From an uncultured Candidatus Saccharibacteria bacterium (GTDB lineage Bacteria; Patescibacteriota; Minisyncoccia; Phycocordibacterales; UBA9973): DNA of 64,000 bases. Below the pieces are notes generated by a model. It was not told the DNA's origin, searched no databases, and worked only from the letters and a program-made list of their open reading frames with translations. Where the stretch lies: contig CAZFSV010000003.1 in the NCBI GenBank assembly GCA_964522195.1, positions 29,575 through 93,574 on the forward strand. The letters are read 5' to 3'. This document shows positions 3,669 through 50,496 of the stretch, piece by piece (the stretch's first letter is position 1; each line of letters begins with the position of its first letter). The translations under genes were made by a program, and so were the position numbers.

Positions 3669-4028
3669 ATGAAATTTATAACAACTTTTTTATTCATCTT
3701 TATTTTACCAATTACTAGTTTTGGAGCTGGTTTAGTATCTTGTGATGGGGTTACAGTAAAATGTGACTATGATGCTTTTATTGAATTAGTTAATAATGTT
3801 ATAAAATTTATCATGGTTAATCTAGCCTTACCTTTAGCTGCTATTGCTTTTGCTTATGCAGGATTTTTATTTTTAACTTCAGCTGAAAATCCAGGTCAAA
3901 GAACTCAAGCTAAAAGTATATTTACAAATGTACTTATTGGTCTTTTGTTAATTGGAACCGCTTTCCTTTTAGTAAAATTAGTCTTAGAGATTTTAAAATA
4001 CAAAAACGCTGGATCTCTTGGTTTTTAG
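3669..4028 (+). CDS. small secreted two-TM protein, VirB2/TrbC-pilin-like topology (subfamily A)
   Basis: Signal peptide, then two hydrophobic helices separated by ENPGQRTQAK. The motif Y.GF.F.T...NP.....AK....VIG is shared with the next gene. Confidence 0.45.
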   Translation: MKFITTFLFIFILPITSFGAGLVSCDGVTVKCDYDAFIELVNNVIKFIMVNLALPLAAIAFAYAGFLFLTSAENPGQRTQAKSIFTNVLIGLLLIGTAFLLVKLVLEILKYKNAGSLGF

Positions 4029-4442: not shown

Positions 4443-4901
4443 ATGAAAAACCTTAAATACAAATTTATAAATCTAGCTTTTATTCTTTTGTTTAGTGTTA
4501 TGCCTTTGATGTCTTTCGCTCAATTAGGTACTGATCTAGGGGCTGATGATAATGTTGATTATTATAATGGTAATACCTCACCTTCCTCATCTTCTTCTAG
4601 TAATTTGAGTTGCTCTGTTGGTCAAGAACCTACAATAGCTAGTATTTTTGATTATATGCTTTGTATTATAAACCGATCTATAATTCCTTTAATATTCGGC
4701 TTAGCTACTTTATTATTCATTTGGGGTGTAGTTAAATTTGTATTAAATACAGATAATGAAAGTGAAAGAGAAAAAGGTAAGGAATTCATGATTTGGGGAA
4801 TTATAGCTCTTACAGTCATGATAACTGTTTGGGGAATTGTAAATTTGCTTGGTAGTAGTTTTGGCTTAGATACAAAATATATACCATCCGTAAAACCTTA
4901 A
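4443..4901 (+). CDS. small secreted two-TM protein, VirB2/TrbC-pilin-like (subfamily B)
   Basis: Signal peptide, a variable Ser-rich N-region and a conserved C-terminal module IIPLIFG...WGVVKF..N.DNESEREKGKEFMIWGIIALTVMITVWGIVN. Bases 4758..4840 are identical to 5158..5240. Confidence 0.45.
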   Translation: MKNLKYKFINLAFILLFSVMPLMSFAQLGTDLGADDNVDYYNGNTSPSSSSSSNLSCSVGQEPTIASIFDYMLCIINRSIIPLIFGLATLLFIWGVVKFVLNTDNESEREKGKEFMIWGIIALTVMITVWGIVNLLGSSFGLDTKYIPSVKP

Positions 4902-7876: not shown

Positions 7877-8018
7877 TTTTTAAAATTTTAAAAAGTTAAT
7901 AAATAGTTTTTGGAAGAATAGAATAGGGAATTATTCCGCCGAAAACTATTTATTAACTTAAAAATCTCTTTGTCAAAGTACTATTTTCTTTGTATATAAT
8001 ATCATAAAATAACAAAAA

Positions 8019-8048
8019 AGTCAATCTTTTTGATTGACTTTTTTGTGT
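8019..8048. terminator. terminator for the minus-strand gene 8066..8905
   Basis: aaaaaagtcaatc-ttttt-gattgactttttt, a perfect 13-bp palindrome flanked by A/T runs. Confidence 0.6.
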
Positions 8049-8065
8049 TTAATTATAATTATTTA

Positions 8066-8905
8066 TTAAGCGTGTTTTAGAGGTTGATTGATTTCTCTTT
8101 CTGTTACCCAGAGTTTTCTGAAAAGTAATACTCCTAAGAATACAAGAACGAAAAGCATTAACCATCCAAGGAAACTATCAGGCATAAAACCTTTCACACT
8201 ACTTGATACACTTGCTGTTAATTTTGTATTTGAATCATTATCATTTGTAGTCGCAGATGCTAAACAATTAGTATTTTCTGCTACAGCTACTTTTTTAGGT
8301 TCTTCTTTTTTAACGACTGTTTTTGCTGGTGTTTTCTTTGCTACTGTTGTGTTAGCTGTTTTTGTAGTACTTGCTTTTGTTGTTGTAGCACTTTTTACTG
8401 TTCCTGTTTTTCCTTCAAGTAAAGTTATGATTTTAGGATTTGAGAACACTCCACCTTCAGTACTCGGATTAACAACTGTCACAATATATTTTCCTGGTGT
8501 TTTAGTATCTCCACTATCAAGACGCATTTTTAATTGATTTGCACTTACAAAAGTAGTAGGGCGGTCTTGACTGTTAAAGCGTGCAATTGAGTCTGGTTTG
8601 AAACCTGTACCATAGATTGTAATAGTTTTTATATCATCCCCAGTGTAAGCTTCTTCTGGATTTATTGAATATATGGTAGGTACTTTGTTTTTGTCTAAAA
8701 CATTAGGATTAAAGTTTGAATTGTTATTTGTATTATTGCCTGTTGTGTTTATAGTACTAGTTCCATTACATGGTCCGTCACAATAAGTATAAGCTCCTAG
8801 TGTTAGATAAGCTTCAGCTGCAGTAGGAGAAAGAAAAGCTGAAAATACAAGGAAACCAAAAGCTAAAAATCCAAATATTAAATTGTTTGTATTTTTATTA
8901 TTCAT
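8066..8905 (-). CDS. surface-anchored protein with an IPT/TIG-like Ig domain
   Basis: Signal peptide, an IPT/TIG-like segment (PTIYSINPEEAYTGDDIKTITIYGTGFKPDSIARFN...YIVTVVNP), a Thr/Lys-rich linker and a C-terminal TM anchor. Confidence 0.45.
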   Translation of the reverse strand: MNNKNTNNLIFGFLAFGFLVFSAFLSPTAAEAYLTLGAYTYCDGPCNGTSTINTTGNNTNNNSNFNPNVLDKNKVPTIYSINPEEAYTGDDIKTITIYGTGFKPDSIARFNSQDRPTTFVSANQLKMRLDSGDTKTPGKYIVTVVNPSTEGGVFSNPKIITLLEGKTGTVKSATTTKASTTKTANTTVAKKTPAKTVVKKEEPKKVAVAENTNCLASATTNDNDSNTKLTASVSSSVKGFMPDSFLGWLMLFVLVFLGVLLFRKLWVTEREINQPLKHA

Positions 8906-37859: not shown

Positions 37860-39569
37860 ATGGAACACACACCCGAAACCAAGAATTGTCAGAATTGTAA
37901 AAATGATTTCACTGTAGAGAGTGAAGATTTTTCTTTTTACGAAAAGATGCAAGTCCCGGCACCAACTTGGTGTTCATTGTGTCGCTTTACAAGACGCATT
38001 GCATTTATTAATGCTTGGACTATGTATTTTAGAAAATGTGATCTCTGTGGAGAGAAAACAATGTCCATGTACCACCCTGATTCTAAATTAAAACTTTATT
38101 GTCAGCCTTGTTGGTGGAGTGACAAATGGGACGGGACTGAATACGCTATGGATTATGATCCTAGTCGTAATTTTTTGGAACAAGTTTTTGAATTAAAACA
38201 AAATACTCCTTTTTGTGCCCTAGAAACTACATATTTAAATTTAAAAAATTCTGAGTATACAAACGCTATATCATTTGCTAAAAATTGCTATTTAGTTTTC
38301 TGGGCGGATTATTGCGAGAATGTTTTTTATTCCTCTCTTTTAAACACGGTTAAAGATAGTTTAGATTTATTGAGAGTATTTAAATCTGAATTATCCTATG
38401 AGTCTGTTGGTGTTGGTAAATCTAGTAAAGTATTTTTTTCTGATACTTGTGATGATTGTGTTGACGTTTGGTTTTCTAGAAATTGTTATGGATGTATGAA
38501 TGTGGTTGGTTGTGTAAATCTAAGAGGCAAAAGTTATATGATTTTTAATCAACAATATTCTAAAGAAGAATATTTTGAAAAATTAAAAGAATTTAAGCTT
38601 GATACCAGAGAAGGAATTAAAAAGCTTTGGCAAGAATCACAAGACTTTTGGCAAAAGCATCCATATAGAGAATATACAGGCAACCCTCAGAACCTAAATG
38701 TATCTGGTGATTATATTTTTGAATCAAAAAATGCTAAAGATTGTTATATTTCTATGGGTGTTGAAGATTCTAAATATGTTCAATTTGCAACTGTACTAAA
38801 AACTACAAATTGTATGGATTACTCTGGTTGGGGCAATAATGCGTCCATGATGTATGAGTGTGCTTCTATGGGAGAAGATGTTTCAAATTCAAAGTTCTCT
38901 TTTTACAGTTTCCCTGATGTTCTAGGTTTAGAATATTCTATGCATTGTATTTCTGGGAAAAATAATTTTGGGTGTGTGAATTTAAAAAGAAAAAAATACG
39001 CTATTTTAAATAAAGAATATTCCAAAGAAGAATACGAGATTTTGCGGGCAAAAATTATTGAAGATATGACTAATAATCCTTATATAGATAGCAAAGGTAG
39101 AATTTATAAATATGGTGAATTTTTCCCTGTGGAATTTTCTTCTTTCCCGTATAATGATTCAAATGCATCTCGCTTTACTCCTAAAACCAAAGAAGAGGCT
39201 ATTTCTGAAGGGTATAATTGGATAGATAAACCGATAAATAATTATACAGTTACGATAAAGGGGCTTGATCTACCTCAGACTATAGAAGAAGTAGATGAAG
39301 AGATATTAAAAGAAGTGGTAGGGTGTACTAATTGTAATAACGGGTTTAGATTTACTGGAGGGGAGTTGAATTTATACAAAAAGTTGAATTTACCGTTGTC
39401 GGAGAATTGCCCTAAATGCAGAGAAGAGAGAAGATTTAATTCTATCAATAAACCGTATAGTTTTGAATCCAATTGTATGAAATGCAACAAAGAGATTACT
39501 ACTATGCATAATCCAAAAGACAATAAAATAATTTACTGTGTGTCCTGCTATCAGCAAGAGATATTATAA
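37860..39569 (+). CDS. Cys-rich multi-zinc-ribbon repeat protein (intact 569-aa paralog)
   Basis: CxxC pairs at both ends sit inside the conserved F.FYEK..VP.P..C..CR and L.LYKKLNLP....C..CR modules. Internal repeats have the form ...C..C.DVWFS.NC.GC.NVVGCVNLRGKSYMIFNQQYSKEEYF. Confidence 0.55.
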   Translation: MEHTPETKNCQNCKNDFTVESEDFSFYEKMQVPAPTWCSLCRFTRRIAFINAWTMYFRKCDLCGEKTMSMYHPDSKLKLYCQPCWWSDKWDGTEYAMDYDPSRNFLEQVFELKQNTPFCALETTYLNLKNSEYTNAISFAKNCYLVFWADYCENVFYSSLLNTVKDSLDLLRVFKSELSYESVGVGKSSKVFFSDTCDDCVDVWFSRNCYGCMNVVGCVNLRGKSYMIFNQQYSKEEYFEKLKEFKLDTREGIKKLWQESQDFWQKHPYREYTGNPQNLNVSGDYIFESKNAKDCYISMGVEDSKYVQFATVLKTTNCMDYSGWGNNASMMYECASMGEDVSNSKFSFYSFPDVLGLEYSMHCISGKNNFGCVNLKRKKYAILNKEYSKEEYEILRAKIIEDMTNNPYIDSKGRIYKYGEFFPVEFSSFPYNDSNASRFTPKTKEEAISEGYNWIDKPINNYTVTIKGLDLPQTIEEVDEEILKEVVGCTNCNNGFRFTGGELNLYKKLNLPLSENCPKCREERRFNSINKPYSFESNCMKCNKEITTMHNPKDNKIIYCVSCYQQEIL

Positions 39570-39592
39570 TTTTGTGCTAAAATATATAAATA

Positions 39593-41047
39593 ATGGCGAA
39601 ACCAAATCGAGTTCAAATAATTAAATACGGTCCACCACCACCAGAGCTTCCAGTTTATGGCAAGGTAAAACCTGAAGAGGTTTCTTTTATTGGGCGGACT
39701 AATTACGTCGCTTCTCTCGAAGAGAAGAAATTTATTTTCGGTTTCAAGAGAGTCGACCGTCGTCGTCACTTGTATATTATAGGTAAGTCTGGAGTAGGTA
39801 AGACTAAACTTCTCGAACTTTTCTTGCGCCAAGATATCACTTATGGTCACGGACTTTGTCTTATCGATCCTCATGGAGACGTGATAGATTCTATGCTCGA
39901 TTATATTCCAAAAGAACGTATTGAAGACGTTTGTATTATCGATCCGTCTGACGTGAATTTCCCAGCCTCTTTCAATCCTCTAGCGAACGTCGACCCTATG
40001 TTTAAATTTCAATTGACTCAAGGTTTGATTGAAGTTTTTCAAAAGCAATTCGGTGCTAACTGGACTCCTCGTCTCGAGCACGTTTTTCGTTTTACATGTC
40101 TGGCACTACTGGACTATCCGTATGCGACCATGCGCGGAATGATATCTATGCTTACTGATAGAAATTATCGTCAGAAAGTAGTGGAATATATTCAAGACGA
40201 TATGGTCAAAAGATTCTTCGCTATTGAATTCGCGGACTGGTCTGAGAAATTCGATACTGATGCTATTATCCCGCTCGTGAATAAACTCGGTCAATTCTTG
40301 TCTGACCCTTTGCTCCGCAATATCTTCGGTCAGAAAGAAAATAAAATAGATATTAGTACTTTGATGAATGAGCAGAAAATTATTTTGATAAATCTTTCTA
40401 AAGGTAAAATCGGTGAAGAGAATTCTTCTTTCTTTGGATCTATGTTTTTGACCAAGATTAAACAAGCTGGTATGGAACGCGCGCATATCTTAGAGAAAGA
40501 TCGTAAAGATTTTTATATTTATGTCGACGAGTTCCAAAACGTCGTGACTCAAACTTTCGAAAATATTCTATCGGAGGCTCGTAAATATGGATTGAACTTA
40601 ACCATGGCTCACCAATACGTCGGGCAGATTCAACCGAAAATCTATCAATCCATTCTCGGTAACGTTGGATCAATTATTTCTTTCCGTGTGGGAGGAGAAG
40701 ACGCGACTCGTTTGAAACCAGAATTCGACCCGCTTTTCGGAGTCAAAGATATGATCAACCTTGCTGTGGGAGAATTTTATATCAAGATGACTATCGACGG
40801 GGAGAGTTATGACCCTTTCTCAGCAGAGACTCTACGAGTATTACCTCCGACTCATACCTCCTACAGAGAAGAAATCATGGCAGCTTCACGTCGCAAATAT
40901 GCTATCTCAAAAGGTGACGCTCAGAGATTGATCCAAGAAGAGGAGTCTACTATAATTCGTAGTGCTGAAGAAAAAGCTGCGATAAAAGGTGCCGGCAGAA
41001 CAGAAGAAGGAGATAGAAAAGAAACGGAATCTGAACCTATGATATAA
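39593..41047 (+). CDS. TraD/VirD4 (type IV coupling protein)-like AAA ATPase, no TM segments
   Basis: Walker A IIGKSGVGKT, LCLIDPHGD...CIIDPSD..FNPL, Walker B IYVDEFQNV and LTMAHQ. Confidence 0.5.
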   Translation: MAKPNRVQIIKYGPPPPELPVYGKVKPEEVSFIGRTNYVASLEEKKFIFGFKRVDRRRHLYIIGKSGVGKTKLLELFLRQDITYGHGLCLIDPHGDVIDSMLDYIPKERIEDVCIIDPSDVNFPASFNPLANVDPMFKFQLTQGLIEVFQKQFGANWTPRLEHVFRFTCLALLDYPYATMRGMISMLTDRNYRQKVVEYIQDDMVKRFFAIEFADWSEKFDTDAIIPLVNKLGQFLSDPLLRNIFGQKENKIDISTLMNEQKIILINLSKGKIGEENSSFFGSMFLTKIKQAGMERAHILEKDRKDFYIYVDEFQNVVTQTFENILSEARKYGLNLTMAHQYVGQIQPKIYQSILGNVGSIISFRVGGEDATRLKPEFDPLFGVKDMINLAVGEFYIKMTIDGESYDPFSAETLRVLPPTHTSYREEIMAASRRKYAISKGDAQRLIQEEESTIIRSAEEKAAIKGAGRTEEGDRKETESEPMI

Positions 41048-46112: not shown

Positions 46113-46784
46113 TTGAAAGTTATGAGAAATTTATTTTTTTTATTGTTCTTAGTAATTCCTTTTTCAGTTTTTTCACAATATGATGAGAAAGAAAAAGAAG
46201 AAGAAAAAACTGAAAAGCAAACCACAAAATTCACCTGTGATGACTTACTCAAAGAGCATTTGGCTTCCTGCGAGCGTTGCGCTACTGGGGACAAATGTTA
46301 CACTCGGCGAGATATTATTGACTTTTGTTCTGGTAAAAAAGAGCAAGAGTTAATAGTGGTTGATCCTGGCTCGGATAATTGTGGATGTCCTACTTATGGT
46401 TTTCATTATCCTCAAGTAAGTCCTTGGTTTAATGAATATTATACACCTTACAACACAGGATTTTATTATACGGGACCTACTTTTGGTTATGGTTCTGGTT
46501 TAAATCTTTCTGTAGGAGTTAGGGGAGGATATTTTGTTGGAGGAGCTTATCCGAATTTAGGGTCTTATTATGGTAGAGCCTATTATAATTCTTACGGAGG
46601 ATATTACGGCCGAGGGTCTTATTATGGTAGAGGCTATTATAATTATCAAGGAGGATATTACGGTAGAGGTAACTACTACGGTCAAGGTGGTTTCCATGGT
46701 AATGGAAATTATTATAATCACGGAGGAGGAAGTAGTAGAGGGAGCTATTATGGCTCTAGAAAAACGACACAACGGGGTCGTTAA
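46113..46784 (+). CDS. secreted Cys-containing protein with a Gly/Tyr/Arg-rich low-complexity tail
   Basis: Signal peptide, an eight-Cys N-domain and the repeats GGYYGRGSYYGRGYYNYQGGYYGRGNYYGQGG. Confidence 0.4.
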   Translation: MKVMRNLFFLLFLVIPFSVFSQYDEKEKEEEKTEKQTTKFTCDDLLKEHLASCERCATGDKCYTRRDIIDFCSGKKEQELIVVDPGSDNCGCPTYGFHYPQVSPWFNEYYTPYNTGFYYTGPTFGYGSGLNLSVGVRGGYFVGGAYPNLGSYYGRAYYNSYGGYYGRGSYYGRGYYNYQGGYYGRGNYYGQGGFHGNGNYYNHGGGSSRGSYYGSRKTTQRGR

Positions 46785-47174: not shown

Positions 47175-47245
47175 GGGCGATTAGTTTAGTGGTAGAACAA
47201 CGGTCTCCAAAACCGTTGGCGGGAGTTCGATTCTCTCATCGCCCG
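47175..47245 (+). tRNA. tRNA-Trp (anticodon CCA)
   Basis: Acceptor GGGCGAT/ATCGCCC, anticodon stem ACGGT/ACCGT with loop CTCCAAA, T-arm GGGAGTTCGATTCTCTC. A terminator hairpin follows at 47252..47279. Confidence 0.8.
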
Positions 47246-47280
47246 CAAAAAAAGAACAGCGAAAGCTGTTTTTTTTGTTG

Positions 47281-47428
47281 GGCGATAGCAGGCAAACTAC
47301 TTTGCCTGTGTGAGGAATCGAAAGGCGGAACTATATTTTTTGAGCACAAAAAATAAGTGAGCCAGGGTTGTGAAAATTTTCAAGCGACGGCGAGAAAATT
47401 ATTCCTGACCGGTCTCTCATCGCCCGCA
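47281..47428 (+). repeat. tRNA-adjacent mini-element, copy 3, ending in a 16-nt exact direct repeat of the tRNA-Trp 3' end
   Basis: It starts gggcgatagcaggca (the tRNA 5' end plus the atagcaggca motif). It contains gaaaattttc...gcgacggcgagaaaattattcctgacc. tctctcatcgcccgca occurs at 47232..47247 and again at 47413..47428. Confidence 0.55.
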
Positions 47429-47566
47429 TTTGACAAAATAGCTAAAATATGTTAATCTACTTCAAGTAGTAGAGTTCTTTAATATTTTGTTTTGTGTATT
47501 GCTTTTTGGACGTCATTTATTGATTTCTAGGGAGCAATATGCAATAACAATTAAAATAATTTTTAA
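47429..47566 (+). promoter_or_regulatory. cassette promoter (TTGACA-N17-TAATCT) plus conserved structured leader, copy a
   Basis: About 85–90% identical to 48422..48549 through the start codon. It contains the hairpin ctact-tgaaa-tagtag and a 9–11-bp stem that pairs tattgctttttgg with ctagggagcaa over the SD-like AGGGAG. Confidence 0.5.
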
Positions 47567-48277
47567 ATGAAATTTAAAAAAGAAAATGATGGTACACATA
47601 TTTATGTGGAAAGTAATGAAGGTGAATTTGAAGTTTTACGTGCCATAGTACAGGCTTCATTTGATTCCTCTGTTCCTGTAGGAATGGGTTTACTAAACTT
47701 TAATAAGGGCGACAAGTTAAGCAGAAATGATGCAGAAAAATTTATTAACAAAACTGATTGGGATAGACCAGGGGCAAGTTTGGTTAATATGGATTACGTT
47801 GGCGGACGTCAGTGTAAAACATATATCAGTCGCGTTGATAAAAATCACTTCAGAATAGCAACTAATTCTTTTGAAAGAGATAGAGGCAATATTGAATTGA
47901 TGCTTGATTTGGTAAACCCAATCATTGAAAAAGACCGCAAGCCTGGTGAAAAAGTTAACCTGACTTCAACTTTTGTTGGTGAAAGTTTAGACAAAAAACT
48001 TACAGAATATGGTTACCAAAGATTACAAAATGAAGATGACTGGTCATTCAGAAAAAGAATTTTCCCTGATCTCTTTATTAAATGCCCTGGTGATCAAAGA
48101 TCTTTGGAATTTTTGTATGGCAAACCATTATCTGATTGGAATGAAATTGAAAGCATGCTTTCTCTAACAGTTTTAATGGAATCAAATGTTGATTATGCTC
48201 AATTGAAAAAGTTTGCAGATGATTTTGGTGGTGATCCATTAAAAATGTGGCCTATTGATCAAAGTATAGCTGTTTAA
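47567..48277 (+). CDS. hypothetical protein (cassette 1 cargo)
   Basis: A 236-aa soluble protein with no recognised motif. Confidence 0.4.
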   Translation: MKFKKENDGTHIYVESNEGEFEVLRAIVQASFDSSVPVGMGLLNFNKGDKLSRNDAEKFINKTDWDRPGASLVNMDYVGGRQCKTYISRVDKNHFRIATNSFERDRGNIELMLDLVNPIIEKDRKPGEKVNLTSTFVGESLDKKLTEYGYQRLQNEDDWSFRKRIFPDLFIKCPGDQRSLEFLYGKPLSDWNEIESMLSLTVLMESNVDYAQLKKFADDFGGDPLKMWPIDQSIAV

Positions 48278-48393
48278 TTTTTTTTCTTAAAAAATCACAA
48301 ATAAAAGGTAATTTATTTTATAAGTTGCCTTTTTTATTTTAGTTAATTTAAATATTATTGATACTAATTCTGATTAGCTCATGATTCTTCAAT

Positions 48394-48549
48394 AGTTCTG
48401 AAATCCAAACATCAAGTCCGCAGTTGACAAAATACTAAAATATGTTATTCTACTTGAAATAGTAGGGTTCTTTGATATTTTGTTTTGTATATTGCTCTCT
48501 GGGTGTCATTTTGGTTTCTAGGGAGCGATATGCAAATCATAATTTAAAT
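48394..48549 (+). repeat. cassette boundary: degenerate tRNA-Trp 3' end-like site, then promoter and leader, copy b
   Basis: agttctgaaatccaaacatcaagtccgc is followed by TTGACA at 48424. The leader shows compensatory changes in its stem (ctctc/ttttt both pair with gggag). Confidence 0.5.
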
Positions 48550-49005
48550 AATTTTAAAATGAAATTAAAAATTTCAGTAGAACAAGTAACAAATGGAAGA
48601 GAGTATAAGGGAATCATTGAAGGTTTGGGTGAAGACTTAAATTACAAATTAAAATTTGGTGTTCCTATAGACCAATTGGATAATCAAAAAGTACCTGAAA
48701 GTAAGGAAGAAGCAAGTATTTTTGCAAAAAAACTATTTAATTTTACTGTAAAAAAAGGAGAAGATTCTCTTGAAATGTCAGATGAACTATTTGCTTTTAT
48801 GGTTCAAACAGCAGGTCATCTTACGCTCACTTTTTACAGCGATGAACAAGCCCAAAGTTATAATAATGGCTCAGGTGTTTTATCAGAAGCTCTTAATAGT
48901 AAAGAAAACAGTTTAATGGGAGCTTTTGGTGCCAGTGTCTCGATTGGAATGTCTCGTTCAATCGATTTACCAAAAGAAAAATTACCTACTATTTTACAAA
49001 ATTAA
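48550..49005 (+). CDS. hypothetical protein (cassette 2 cargo)
   Basis: ATG at 48550 (MKLKISVEQ...) aligns with the start of cassette 1. The track's 48472 start lies inside the conserved leader. Confidence 0.4.
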   Translation, partial: NFKMKLKISVEQVTNGREYKGIIEGLGEDLNYKLKFGVPIDQLDNQKVPESKEEASIFAKKLFNFTVKKGEDSLEMSDELFAFMVQTAGHLTLTFYSDEQAQSYNNGSGVLSEALNSKENSLMGAFGASVSIGMSRSIDLPKEKLPTILQN

Positions 49006-49117
49006 AAAAAATTTAAATTTTATTTCATAAAAAATAAAAGAGTAACTTAACTAAGTTGCTCTTTTTTATTTTTTATACTATTAATATCCCGTTTTATTAA
49101 ATTAGAATTTCTCAAAA

Positions 49118-49266
49118 GTTCTGAAATCCACTCATCAAGCCCGCATTTGACAAAATACTAAAATATGTTATTTTATTTTAAATAGTAGGGTTCTTTGATA
49201 TTGGATTTAGTTGGGTTTTCAGAGGAGATTTGGTCTTTTCTGATAACCTAATTAAATAATTAAAAA
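49118..49266 (+). repeat. cassette boundary plus promoter, copy c (leader diverges after ~49205)
   Basis: agttctgaaatccactcatcaagcccgca-tttgacaaaatactaaaatatg. The segment ctcatcaagcccgca resembles the tRNA-Trp 3' end ctcatcgcccgca. Confidence 0.5.
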
Positions 49267-49521
49267 ATGAAAAAAGAAAATTTATGTTGCTTAGTAGTGT
49301 TCGGTAATTTTGTTGCCTTAAATAGAAAAAAATTAGATGAAATTCCTGAAAATGAAAAACCTGAAATTGATTTAGAAAAAGGCTTGTGGAAAGACGAAAA
49401 ATGGGTTTGGCGTAAAATTGGAGAAGAAACTGGTAGTGGTTTAATCCGCTTTATCTTTGATCACACTAACTATGCTCATTCAGGACGAGCCCTCGGAATA
49501 GTCGCAGATTTCAATAGATAA
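49267..49521 (+). CDS. hypothetical small protein (cassette 3 cargo)
   Basis: 84 aa: MKKENLCCLVVFGNF... Confidence 0.35.
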   Translation: MKKENLCCLVVFGNFVALNRKKLDEIPENEKPEIDLEKGLWKDEKWVWRKIGEETGSGLIRFIFDHTNYAHSGRALGIVADFNR

Positions 49522-49687
49522 GACGAAAAGATTGCCTGCTAGGAGTTAATGTCAAAATACAATCTACTAAATTATCTTAAGGAATAGTCATTCGTGATTG
49601 TTCCTTTTTTATTTTATTTTTTTTAAAATGAATAATACTTAATTTAATCAAAGAGCTACTAACTAATAGTTCGGAAATCCAAACATC

Positions 49688-49715
49688 AAGTCCGCTCGTG
49701 AACTTTGTGAATGTT
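49688..49715 (+). repeat. fourth degenerate tRNA-Trp-end-like site (no TTGACA module follows)
   Basis: agttcggaaatccaaacatcaagtccgc. Confidence 0.4.
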
Positions 49716-50019
49716 GTGAACTTGATTGTTTTCTCTATGAGAATTATTCTGTTAAATAACTTGCTTTTTTATAAAAATATGGTATAAACTATTTGATATT
49801 GTACTTAAAAATTTTTTAAAAATTAGACTCATGAAAGCCTGTTTAATATTTTCTAGAGATGGAAAAACTGCATTTATTAAATTTGAAAACGGATCAGAAT
49901 CGCTAGATTTTGAAAGTAAAGAAGAAGTAATTCATGGAATAAATCATTGCCAAGTACTTGGCAAAATTACCAAAAATGAGGCAAGGTAATTCTTAAAAGA
50001 AATTAGCTTAGCTGAGAAT

Positions 50020-50343
50020 ATGCCTAATCACAACAAAGTACTTTCTTTGTTTCCTTTGATAATTCTTTCCTTGCTTCTTAATTCAAGGATAGAACAAGAA
50101 CAAGAGAAAGAAGAAATTTTTGAACCTTATGTTGAGATTTGTGATTGTGGACATAAAACACCACACGCATACATTTATAATGGTAATAAAAAAGTTATTG
50201 GACCTAACTTTCAATTTAAATCTGAGGGATTTGATATTGTTGAAAATCTTTTTACATCAGGATATATTGATGAGGGAGATACCTCTCGATTAAATACTTT
50301 AATTGATTTGCTTAAATTGCCAGAGAGTCCAATTTTGAATTAA
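50020..50343 (+). CDS. hypothetical small protein (cassette 4 cargo)
   Basis: 107 aa with an N-terminal hydrophobic segment. A further 52-aa ORF lies upstream at about 49831..49989. Confidence 0.3.
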   Translation: MPNHNKVLSLFPLIILSLLLNSRIEQEQEKEEIFEPYVEICDCGHKTPHAYIYNGNKKVIGPNFQFKSEGFDIVENLFTSGYIDEGDTSRLNTLIDLLKLPESPILN

Positions 50344-50496
50344 GTTTATTTGAATTTTAGAAAACTTAGACAAAAACCAATTGATTGAATGATTAATTGG
50401 TTTTTTATTTTATCAATTTATTTTAAGATAGAGGCAATTCCTTAGTTTTTTTATTTTAAATTAGAATTGTTTACTGTATTATGATATATTTTTAAT

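Follow-up and report, generated by a model that had tools for sequence, protein, structure and literature searches.

Recombinase-less modules mobilised in trans are represented by the Xer-dependent pdif modules and the integrative mobile elements exploiting Xer (IMEXs), and a Xer-type site measures 28 bp, with inverted XerC/XerD arms and a 6-bp spacer. Phage morons are autonomous promoter-gene-terminator units inserted between other genes, and CALINs are reportedly clusters of attC sites without an integron integrase. In Prochlorococcus, islands and tycheposons consist of units at the 3' ends of tRNA genes with repeated partial tRNAs, and tycheposons, which measure kilobases, are recognised by a tyrosine or serine recombinase and replication genes that they carry themselves (bioRxiv 10.1101/2020.12.28.424599). 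Elements resembling the staphylococcal cassette chromosome (SCC) that lack ccr stand in tandem at rlmH (PMC11470126). The locus considered here is an array of 3.2 kb lying directly downstream of the tRNA-Trp gene in a stretch of 64 kb of contig CAZFSV010000003.1 (the window, that is, the whole stretch of DNA analysed), a chromosome segment of the type found in the tiny genomes of the candidate phyla radiation (CPR)/Patescibacteria, with a guanine-cytosine (GC) content of ~29%. These bacteria have very small genomes with few recognisable mobile elements, and the turnover of their accessory genes is poorly understood. Our preferred interpretation, to which we assign a probability of about 0.6, is that mobile cassettes, each equipped with a promoter, form an array anchored at the tRNA and were integrated by a recombinase that acts in trans. 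Its logic is that of tandem tRNA islets combined with that of integron/CALIN cassette arrays, while the features defining integrons and tycheposons are absent. In the literature on integrons, cassettes and tRNA islands of CPR/Patescibacteria no description of such arrays was found.

An initial annotation of this region had proposed four successive units after tRNA-Trp, each beginning with a sequence resembling the end of the tRNA, and these repeats and their common junction were recovered in our analysis. The tRNA 3' end TCTCTCATCGCCCGCA at 47232-47247 is the anchor of the array (attB/attL-like, in terms of attachment (att) sites). An exact copy of it precedes the first unit, whereas the later units are preceded by a degenerate version of 28-32 nt, here termed att', of which the window holds three copies and no others. 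The sequences that follow these sites and carry the promoters (5' modules) are of two main types, A and B. The anchor and the junction sites are as follows.

47175-47246, plus strand: tRNA-Trp(cca), found by ARAGORN and Rfam
47248-47412, plus strand: insert of 165 bp, not present in the related locus L028
47413-47428, plus strand: exact 16-nt duplicate of the tRNA-Trp 3' end (TCTCTCATCGCCCGCA), at the junction to the first A-module
48391-48422, plus strand: att' copy 1, AATAGTTCTGAAATCCAAACATCAAGTCCGCA, a degenerate tRNA-Trp 3' end
49114-49145, plus strand: att' copy 2, AAAAGTTCTGAAATCCACTCATCAAGCCCGCA, the closest to the tRNA among the copies
49665-49695, plus strand: att' copy 3, AATAGTTCGGAAATCCAAACATCAAGTCCGC, followed by the B-module and not by an A-module

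Exact matches to TCTCTCATCGCCCGCA in the 64 kb are two, against a chance expectation of 0.05, and the copy at 47413-47428 is the one that had been pointed out initially. The 28-mer AGTTCTGAAATCCAAACATCAAGTCCGC, searched with up to three mismatches, matched three times, at 48394, 49117 and 49668 (chance expectation 0); the first of these positions had been given correctly, while the other two had been placed at 49118 and 49688. When the att' copies were anchored at the junction and aligned with the last 24 nt of tRNA-Trp (AGTTC-G--ATTCTCTCATC--GCCCGCA), the alignments were better than those of 99.8-99.997% of the window 32-mers (p ~3e-5 to 2e-3), whereas free local alignment to the tRNA was individually significant for the 49114 copy only. 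These anchored statistics, together with the 16-nt duplicate and the L028 junction described below, speak against the alternative that the repeats are unrelated to the tRNA end. Every att' copy stops at one common junction, immediately before the 5' module, and the junctions are consistently placed after ...CCGC(A). Conservation of att' reaches ~8-10 nt further to the left (TTCTYAAAAG...), where the extension gives two direct repeats, TTCT[CG]AA, spaced by one turn of the helix; the att' site is ~30-40 nt long. Since A-, B- or other promoters follow att' at varying distance, it is a junction element rather than a promoter-proximal operator. A metagenome scan with the att' pattern gave 11 matches, two of which were true, the other nine being chance matches in unrelated GC-rich contigs. 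Viral collections contained no copies of att' or of the A-module, and GenBank phages matched the tRNA only.

The comparison with related loci (labelled L028, L026, L040, L014/L015 and L010; L040 comes from a third sample) provided the evidence for mobility. L028 is syntenic with the window over Alr-rpmG-tRNA-Trp, with identities of 68% for the Alr protein, 94% for L33 and 95% for tRNA-Trp. There the tRNA end is fused straight to an A-module, the junction reading ...ctcatcgcccgca/gttgacaaaatgctaaaat (CCCGCA/GTTGACA), and on this basis the window differs by a 165-bp insert with a 16-nt target duplication. An insert bounded by such a duplication is a classic footprint of site-specific integration. 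The cargo of L028 consists of five genes, coding for a 103-aa protein, a DUF805 membrane protein, a short-chain dehydrogenase/reductase (SDR), a 153-aa protein and a 64-aa protein, which are separated by three att' copies (one split by an insertion) and served by A-, B- or other promoters. None of this cargo is common to the two loci, save that an intact homolog of the last gene of the window array, of 164 aa, is found elsewhere in L028. The non-coding parts are much better conserved than the surroundings: att' agrees at 27-28 of 28 positions, the A-core is 87-98% and the B-module 85% identical (85-100% for the modules overall), against a baseline of 68% for the Alr DNA and 73% for the spacer between rpmG and the tRNA. 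In L040, the cassette of the second cargo gene (A-module, open reading frame (ORF) and terminator) is 93% identical over 660 bp and lies in a different place; the homology stops at 49081, and a dinB-like gene follows directly, 88% identical to the dinB-like gene of L028, where the slot before dinB is taken by an A-module and the 64-aa cassette instead. Both ends of the L040 contig lie inside A-modules. In L026 a 168-aa gene lies between two att' copies, and a homolog of the element in the insert comes after the second of them. Other genome contigs of relatives, retrieved via Alr, stop short of the island. The locus was assembled identically in three independent samples, and the array is for this reason not an assembly artefact. 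The same genes in the same order among relatives, which the initial annotation had set as a ground for abandoning its proposal, were thus not encountered, and serial acquisition of promoter-equipped cassettes at a tRNA-derived site gained support from L028 and L040. Content turnover, a relocated cassette, target duplication and conserved non-coding modules fit cassettes that are mobile, and they contradict a regulon that is fixed and arose by local duplication.

The 165-bp insert consists of the tRNA terminator hairpin (47249-47278) and an RNA-like element of ~135-150 nt that folds strongly (-67 kcal/mol, z-score -6.5); the insert is flanked by the 16-nt duplication of the tRNA end. The homolog in L026 (11905-12048, minus strand) lies beside att' and upstream of a GATase-like gene, and its 5' hairpin shows one compensatory change relative to the window element. 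The element belongs to no Rfam family, nor is an own promoter obvious. The possibility of a tRNA-like RNA was dropped because the 'acceptor stem' GGGCGAT/ATCGCCC is not kept in the L026 homolog.

Compared with the systems described so far, the array has most in common with tandem tRNA islets. As in those, the 3' end of a tRNA gene is the anchor, tRNA-derived repeats stand between the units, the units are stacked at the tRNA, content varies among relatives and most of the cargo has no known function; the tRNA end recurs as a direct repeat at the far boundary, and the orthologous site is polymorphic in content. The initial annotation had suggested integron or tandem-islet logic, and the islet part of that suggestion holds except for an own integrase, as no element-encoded integrase was found in any unit. 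Unlike tycheposons, the units have no recombinase, primase or helicase domain and carry one small ORF each; unlike the plain partial tRNAs of tandem islets, the repeats are diverged copies of a strongly conserved site of ~30-40 nt, and the units share portable promoter/boxA leader modules. With integrons and CALINs the array shares ordered single-gene cassettes, a repeated recombination-type site, a fixed head anchor and shuffling between genomes, and with CALINs in particular the absence of an adjoining integrase. However, no recombinase domain, and hence no intI, was found in the ORFs flanking the array or in the window ORFs tested, the anchor is the end of a tRNA gene and not attI, and integron cassettes are mostly promoterless and dependent on the Pc promoter, whereas the cassettes here have their own promoter and terminator. 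Nor is att' an attC site: the three att' regions, folded as single-stranded DNA on both strands, gave no attC-like hairpin (z -0.05 to +0.83), and inspection of the sequence at the junction revealed no GTTRRRY core. A CALIN assignment fails, since the repeated sites are not attC, even though there is no nearby integrase. Modules mobilised in trans are similar in their small cargo, repeated sites of ~28 nt, tandem stacking at a fixed site and a recombinase that would be encoded elsewhere, but here the target is tRNA-Trp and not rlmH or dif, no dyad recalling inverted XerC/XerD arms is visible in att', which also has no hairpin potential, and the host belongs to the CPR. The autonomous promoter/gene/terminator units recall phage morons, from which they differ in being bounded by att-like repeats at a tRNA and in having no prophage context.

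In the mechanism that we propose, att' recombines site-specifically with the tRNA end or with an att' already in place. Cassettes would enter conservatively, with the crossover at or next to the GCCCGCA shared at the junction, by means of a recombinase encoded elsewhere and acting in trans. Each integration would regenerate an att site, and for that reason cassettes would pile up in tandem, and because the modules are shared, cassettes could also be swapped by homologous recombination; the first position would carry a small structured RNA instead of an ORF, and every cassette would supply its own strong promoter. Several observations weigh against this interpretation. A recombinase domain was detected neither in the window ORFs tested (in agreement with the initial annotation, which had noted no integrase) nor in the loci of 7-14 kb seen around the arrays of L028, L026, L040 and L014/L015, and no circular cassette, read-level empty site or excision product was observed. 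The att' copies differ from the tRNA end by three indels (5 nt in total), so that the T-loop dyad used by many tRNA-targeting integrases is lost, and att' has no obvious dyad symmetry. The last cassette in both L040 and L028 has no canonical att' after it, and the swaps between these two loci could be explained by homologous recombination alone. The function of boxA and the transcription start sites are predictions, and the comparison set is small, with three closely related genomes and one distant lineage.

Some of these points are what would be expected if only homologous recombination had acted, with att', the A- and B-modules and the core genes serving as homology arms after DNA uptake and att' being an old scar. 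The replacement between L028 and L040 is bounded on the left by the A-module and on the right by dinB, without att' on the right, the modules are 85-100% identical between genomes, and no recombinase was found in the window ORFs tested or the related loci. However, the arms would be short (30-60 nt), and this explanation does not account for the 16-nt target duplication around the 165-bp insert, for a near-invariant non-coding att' (27-28/28) where Alr is 68% identical, or for the constant end of att' at the junction whichever 5' module follows. We consider it rather improbable as the whole explanation, and would place equally low the chance that it has been a contributing or alternative route. 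Tandem islets in decay, in which larger integrase-bearing elements (prophages, integrative and mobilizable elements or tycheposon-like elements) entered tRNA-Trp serially and were then reduced by deletions, are a less probable source still. Islands next to tRNA genes, with scattered partial tRNAs and degenerate elements, are well documented, e.g., in Prochlorococcus (bioRxiv 10.1101/2020.12.28.424599), and a viral contig has a small ORF that corresponds to the N-terminal domain of the first cargo protein. The units are, however, uniformly tiny and complete, with promoter, ORF, terminator and att', which makes a decayed origin less likely; no integrase fragments or phage genes were found, att' and the 5' modules hardly vary within a genome or from one genome to another, which products of independent decay would do, and the layout recurs in three genomes with different cargo.

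It could also be supposed that nothing here is mobile, i.e., that a regulatory unit was duplicated in tandem before co-regulated small genes and resembles the tRNA incidentally. The A-core is a good promoter with a possible operator palindrome over -10/+1, and in the window the repeats are limited to one locus, as such a regulon would be. But the cargo at the orthologous L028 locus is completely different, the cassette of the second cargo gene lies elsewhere in L040, att' is found without an A-module and at varying distance from other promoters, an exact 16-nt duplicate of the tRNA end sits in the att' position, and the anchored alignment to the tRNA is significant. The L028 junction, the cargo turnover and the L040 cassette largely refute this explanation, and we regard it as very improbable.

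Returning to mobile cassettes, the 5' modules are the parts that they have in common. The A-module was found in the window at 47430, 48424 and 49147 only, in each case 1-2 nt or less behind its site (the 16-mer or one of the first two att' copies), in agreement with the TTGACA-N16/17 promoter initially described for the first three units (U1 to U3). The modules are as follows.

47430-47566, plus strand: A-module of U1, with -35 TTGACA at 47430-35 and -10 TAATCT at 47453-58
47474-84, plus strand: boxA of U1, GTTCTTTAATA, followed by a long hairpin at ~47487-47550 (z -5.0)
48424-48558, plus strand: A-module of U2, with -35 at 48424-29 and -10 TATTCT at 48446-51
48467-77, plus strand: boxA of U2, GTTCTTTGATA, with a long hairpin (z -6.9)
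49147-49266, plus strand: A-module of U3, with -35 at 49147-52 and -10 TATTTT at 49169-74
49190-49200, plus strand: boxA of U3, with a hairpin of its own (z -4.6)
49696-49830, plus strand: B-module, with three GTGAAC/GTGAAT repeats and a TTGCTT-N16-TATAAA promoter at 49761-49788 (extended -10)

The A-type promoter consists of TTGACA, a spacer of 16-17 nt and the -10 hexamer, with an upstream TG in two copies. From the promoter to boxA the three copies are 82-89% identical over the first ~62 nt, and the U2 core is 98% identical to copy A2 of L028. The initial annotation had extended a block of 85-90% identity through the ATG; U1 and U2 do remain 82% identical to that point, but the U3 leader is non-homologous past boxA, and the shared first codons, which are AT-rich, carry little weight. 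The boxA starts 15 nt after the -10 hexamer. In U1, GTTCTTTAATA matches exactly the consensus GYTCTTTAANA, which is gamma-proteobacterial, while GTTCTTTGATA of U2 and U3 is one base off. The G variant equals the core of GTTCTTTGAAAA, which was found mainly as a polymerase chain reaction primer in papers on Mycoplasma/Phytoplasma detection and which we take to target boxA of the 16S-23S spacer. Downstream of boxA, a very stable hairpin of ~20-28 bp is present in all five A-leaders (U1-U3 and two L028 copies; z -4.5 to -7.4), its sequence differing between U1/U2, U3 and the two L028 copies, and the start region that follows is rich in AU and lacks a Shine-Dalgarno sequence. The B-module is 85% identical in L028, where it stands 5' of two other genes (3815-3994 and 4766-4828, minus strand) and is split by a 38-nt insertion; in total it precedes three different genes in two genomes. 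Searches of the window region and the related loci against Rfam 15, with gathering and permissive thresholds, returned tRNAs only, the matches below threshold being noise.

The antitermination leaders of the boxA/nut type are described from rrn operons, lambda nut sites, suhB and CRISPR arrays (bioRxiv 10.1101/091223; PMC7665894). The leaders of the present array are similar in that GTTCTTTAATA fits the consensus close to where the transcript is predicted to start, with a hairpin after it, as in the lambda order boxA-boxB, but they stand on short protein-coding cassettes and their long hairpin varies. Judging solely by how the motif matches and by its constant placement, recruitment of NusB/NusE by the boxA leader is probable, and would protect the transcripts from termination or tune translation, with the RNA GUUCUUUAAUA as the predicted candidate NusB/NusE site of the A-leader. 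Nus factors loaded on RNA polymerase in this way would shield short transcripts without a Shine-Dalgarno sequence from premature termination, and could permit read-through into the next cassette. A palindrome CTACT-N6-AGTAG was also observed at 47457-47472, 48450-48465 and 49173-49188 (TTATT-N6-AGTAG in U3), where in every A-module it overlaps the -10 hexamer as well as the probable start of transcription. A reading as a boxB-like RNA hairpin was dropped: since the 5' arm of the palindrome overlaps the -10 hexamer in the window, transcription probably begins downstream of it, and a possible repressor operator is the better reading.

Each unit is 0.2-1 kb long with one gene, and its layout is a 5' module, one ORF, an intrinsic terminator, a spacer of ~50 nt and att'. 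The genes and terminators are as follows.

47567-48277, plus strand: cargo 1, 236 aa, belonging to a conserved ~230-aa family
48303-48340, plus strand: terminator-like hairpin and T-run after cargo 1, by sequence inspection
48559-49005, plus strand: cargo 2, 148 aa, ATG at 48559
49036-49075, plus strand: intrinsic terminator after cargo 2
49267-49521, plus strand: cargo 3, 84 aa, with homologs at 80% and 44% identity
49579-49615, plus strand: intrinsic terminator after cargo 3
49831-50343, plus strand: broken gene of the 164-aa type, with an in-frame TAA at 49987-49989
50373-50410, plus strand: terminator-like hairpin closing the last unit, by sequence inspection

The cargo sizes first reported, 236, 152, 84 and 107 aa, stand for the first and third genes; the second codes for 148 aa, and the ORF of 107 aa is the 3' part of the broken gene. 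An ORF of 52 aa and that of 107 aa had been listed separately because the in-frame TAA splits one gene of the 164-aa type; they belong to one frame and to a single tblastn high-scoring segment pair with the intact 164-aa protein of L028 (360-854). The TAA is also present in three other assemblies of the locus, and the sequence is either a pseudogene or a read-through gene. For cargo 1, 26 homologs with 37 invariant positions were found. Its structure was modelled confidently (predicted local distance difference test (pLDDT) 85.6), structure prediction having been proposed for the cargo in the initial annotation, but for this model no convincing structural or sequence relative was found. In L041, an IMG/VR contig, an ORF of 111 aa (7968-8303) with small phage genes around it shows homology to the cargo-1 family over residues 20-90, and a viral protein of 116 aa in BFVD matches the N-terminal domain structurally (E-value 8e-3). 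Cargos 2 and 3 have close homologs only, and cargo 3 has no Pfam match. The ratio of nonsynonymous to synonymous substitution rates (dN/dS) of cargo 2 against its L040 homolog is 0.31, i.e., the gene evolves under purifying selection.

A similar layout with its own sequences was present in the distant lineage. L014/L015 has a homolog of cargo 1 with 38% identity as part of an array. A T-arm/acceptor-like fragment, AGGTTCGAATCCTCTTCCTGGAGC, is repeated there in diverged form, AGGTTCTAAYATCGTYCAGTTCCCGGAGCCA, and these copies stand directly 5' of a promoter (TTGAC-N17-TATATT), followed by a palindrome and then by AGTTCTTTGAAAA; the cargo comprises a major facilitator superfamily (MFS) transporter, small ORFs and a Fic protein. 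A tmRNA end was considered for the fragment at L014 3578-3603 and was unsupported by ARAGORN and Rfam. In L010, which carries a 71% homolog of cargo 1, a TIR-domain gene lies between AAGTTCGAACYATTCMAYGAAGGT repeats. The cargo of the sister arrays (TIR, Fic, helix-turn-helix (HTH), SDR, DUF805 and transporter proteins) suggests defence, toxin and niche functions. Motifs resembling boxA occur 14-15 nt after the -10 hexamer also before the 63% and 71% homologs of cargo 1, and, more generally, 14-28 nt after -10 in front of cargo-1 homologs with leaders that cannot be aligned apart from this motif. The leaders of the remaining homologs are different, and several of these genes adjoin tRNA genes.

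Tentatively, the locus could exemplify an undescribed gene-capture platform of CPR/Patescibacteria, parallel to integrons in function and built from different parts. In such a platform the 3' end of the tRNA gene would be the fixed entry site, the tRNA-derived att' of ~40 nt the cassette site, the recombinase would act in trans, and the promoter/boxA/hairpin leaders would give immediate and processive expression. If the layout of L014/L015, with its unrelated sequences, belongs to the same platform, it would be widespread in reduced genomes, and boxA leaders on protein-coding cassettes, if true, would extend Nus-factor control beyond rRNA in a CPR lineage. The locus is in any case a concrete, sequence-defined candidate for accessory-gene acquisition in these bacteria, in which a slot fixed at a tRNA gene and a conserved, short junction site are combined with plug-in cassettes bringing their own expression signals, and the patterns of att' and of the A- and B-modules could be used to catalogue the flexible gene pool and to seek the recombinase by co-occurrence.

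Further observations concern the relatives and the surroundings of the array. Analogous arrays were seen at L014 3578-7005, L015 1-3500 and L010 5590-6440, with cargo including MFS, Fic, TIR_2 and HTH proteins, and an element of ~145 nt in L014 (5677-5816) and L015 (1933-2077) has an att'-like start and ends in GAACTGGGGAGC. A homolog of cargo 1 lies directly downstream of tRNA-Arg in L019 (7671-8708), further tRNA-adjacent homologs occur in L021 and in L017 (11877-11950), and L019 and L022 have in common a different conserved structured leader, gggatagcgacatggtgccgttttcccattgaaaatcaac. The array is set in housekeeping surroundings, with Ddl, Alr, a Gly/Tyr-rich (GY-rich) protein and rpmG upstream of tRNA-Trp, and is followed by a rhodanese gene from 50497 (Pfam Rhodanese) and a large LCAT-like protein. 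The GY-rich protein (46113-46784, 223 aa) starts with a hydrophobic N-terminal segment, contains a stretch rich in Cys and has a long low-complexity Gly/Tyr-rich tail with GYYGRG repeats, and a weak homolog occupies the equivalent position in L004. Farther upstream, the region 37860-41047 contains an ORF of 569 aa without a recorded Pfam domain and one of 484 aa with weak matches to coupling proteins of the TraG/TrwB/VirD4 type, and its GC content is raised to 0.35-0.40, against ~0.29 in the window.

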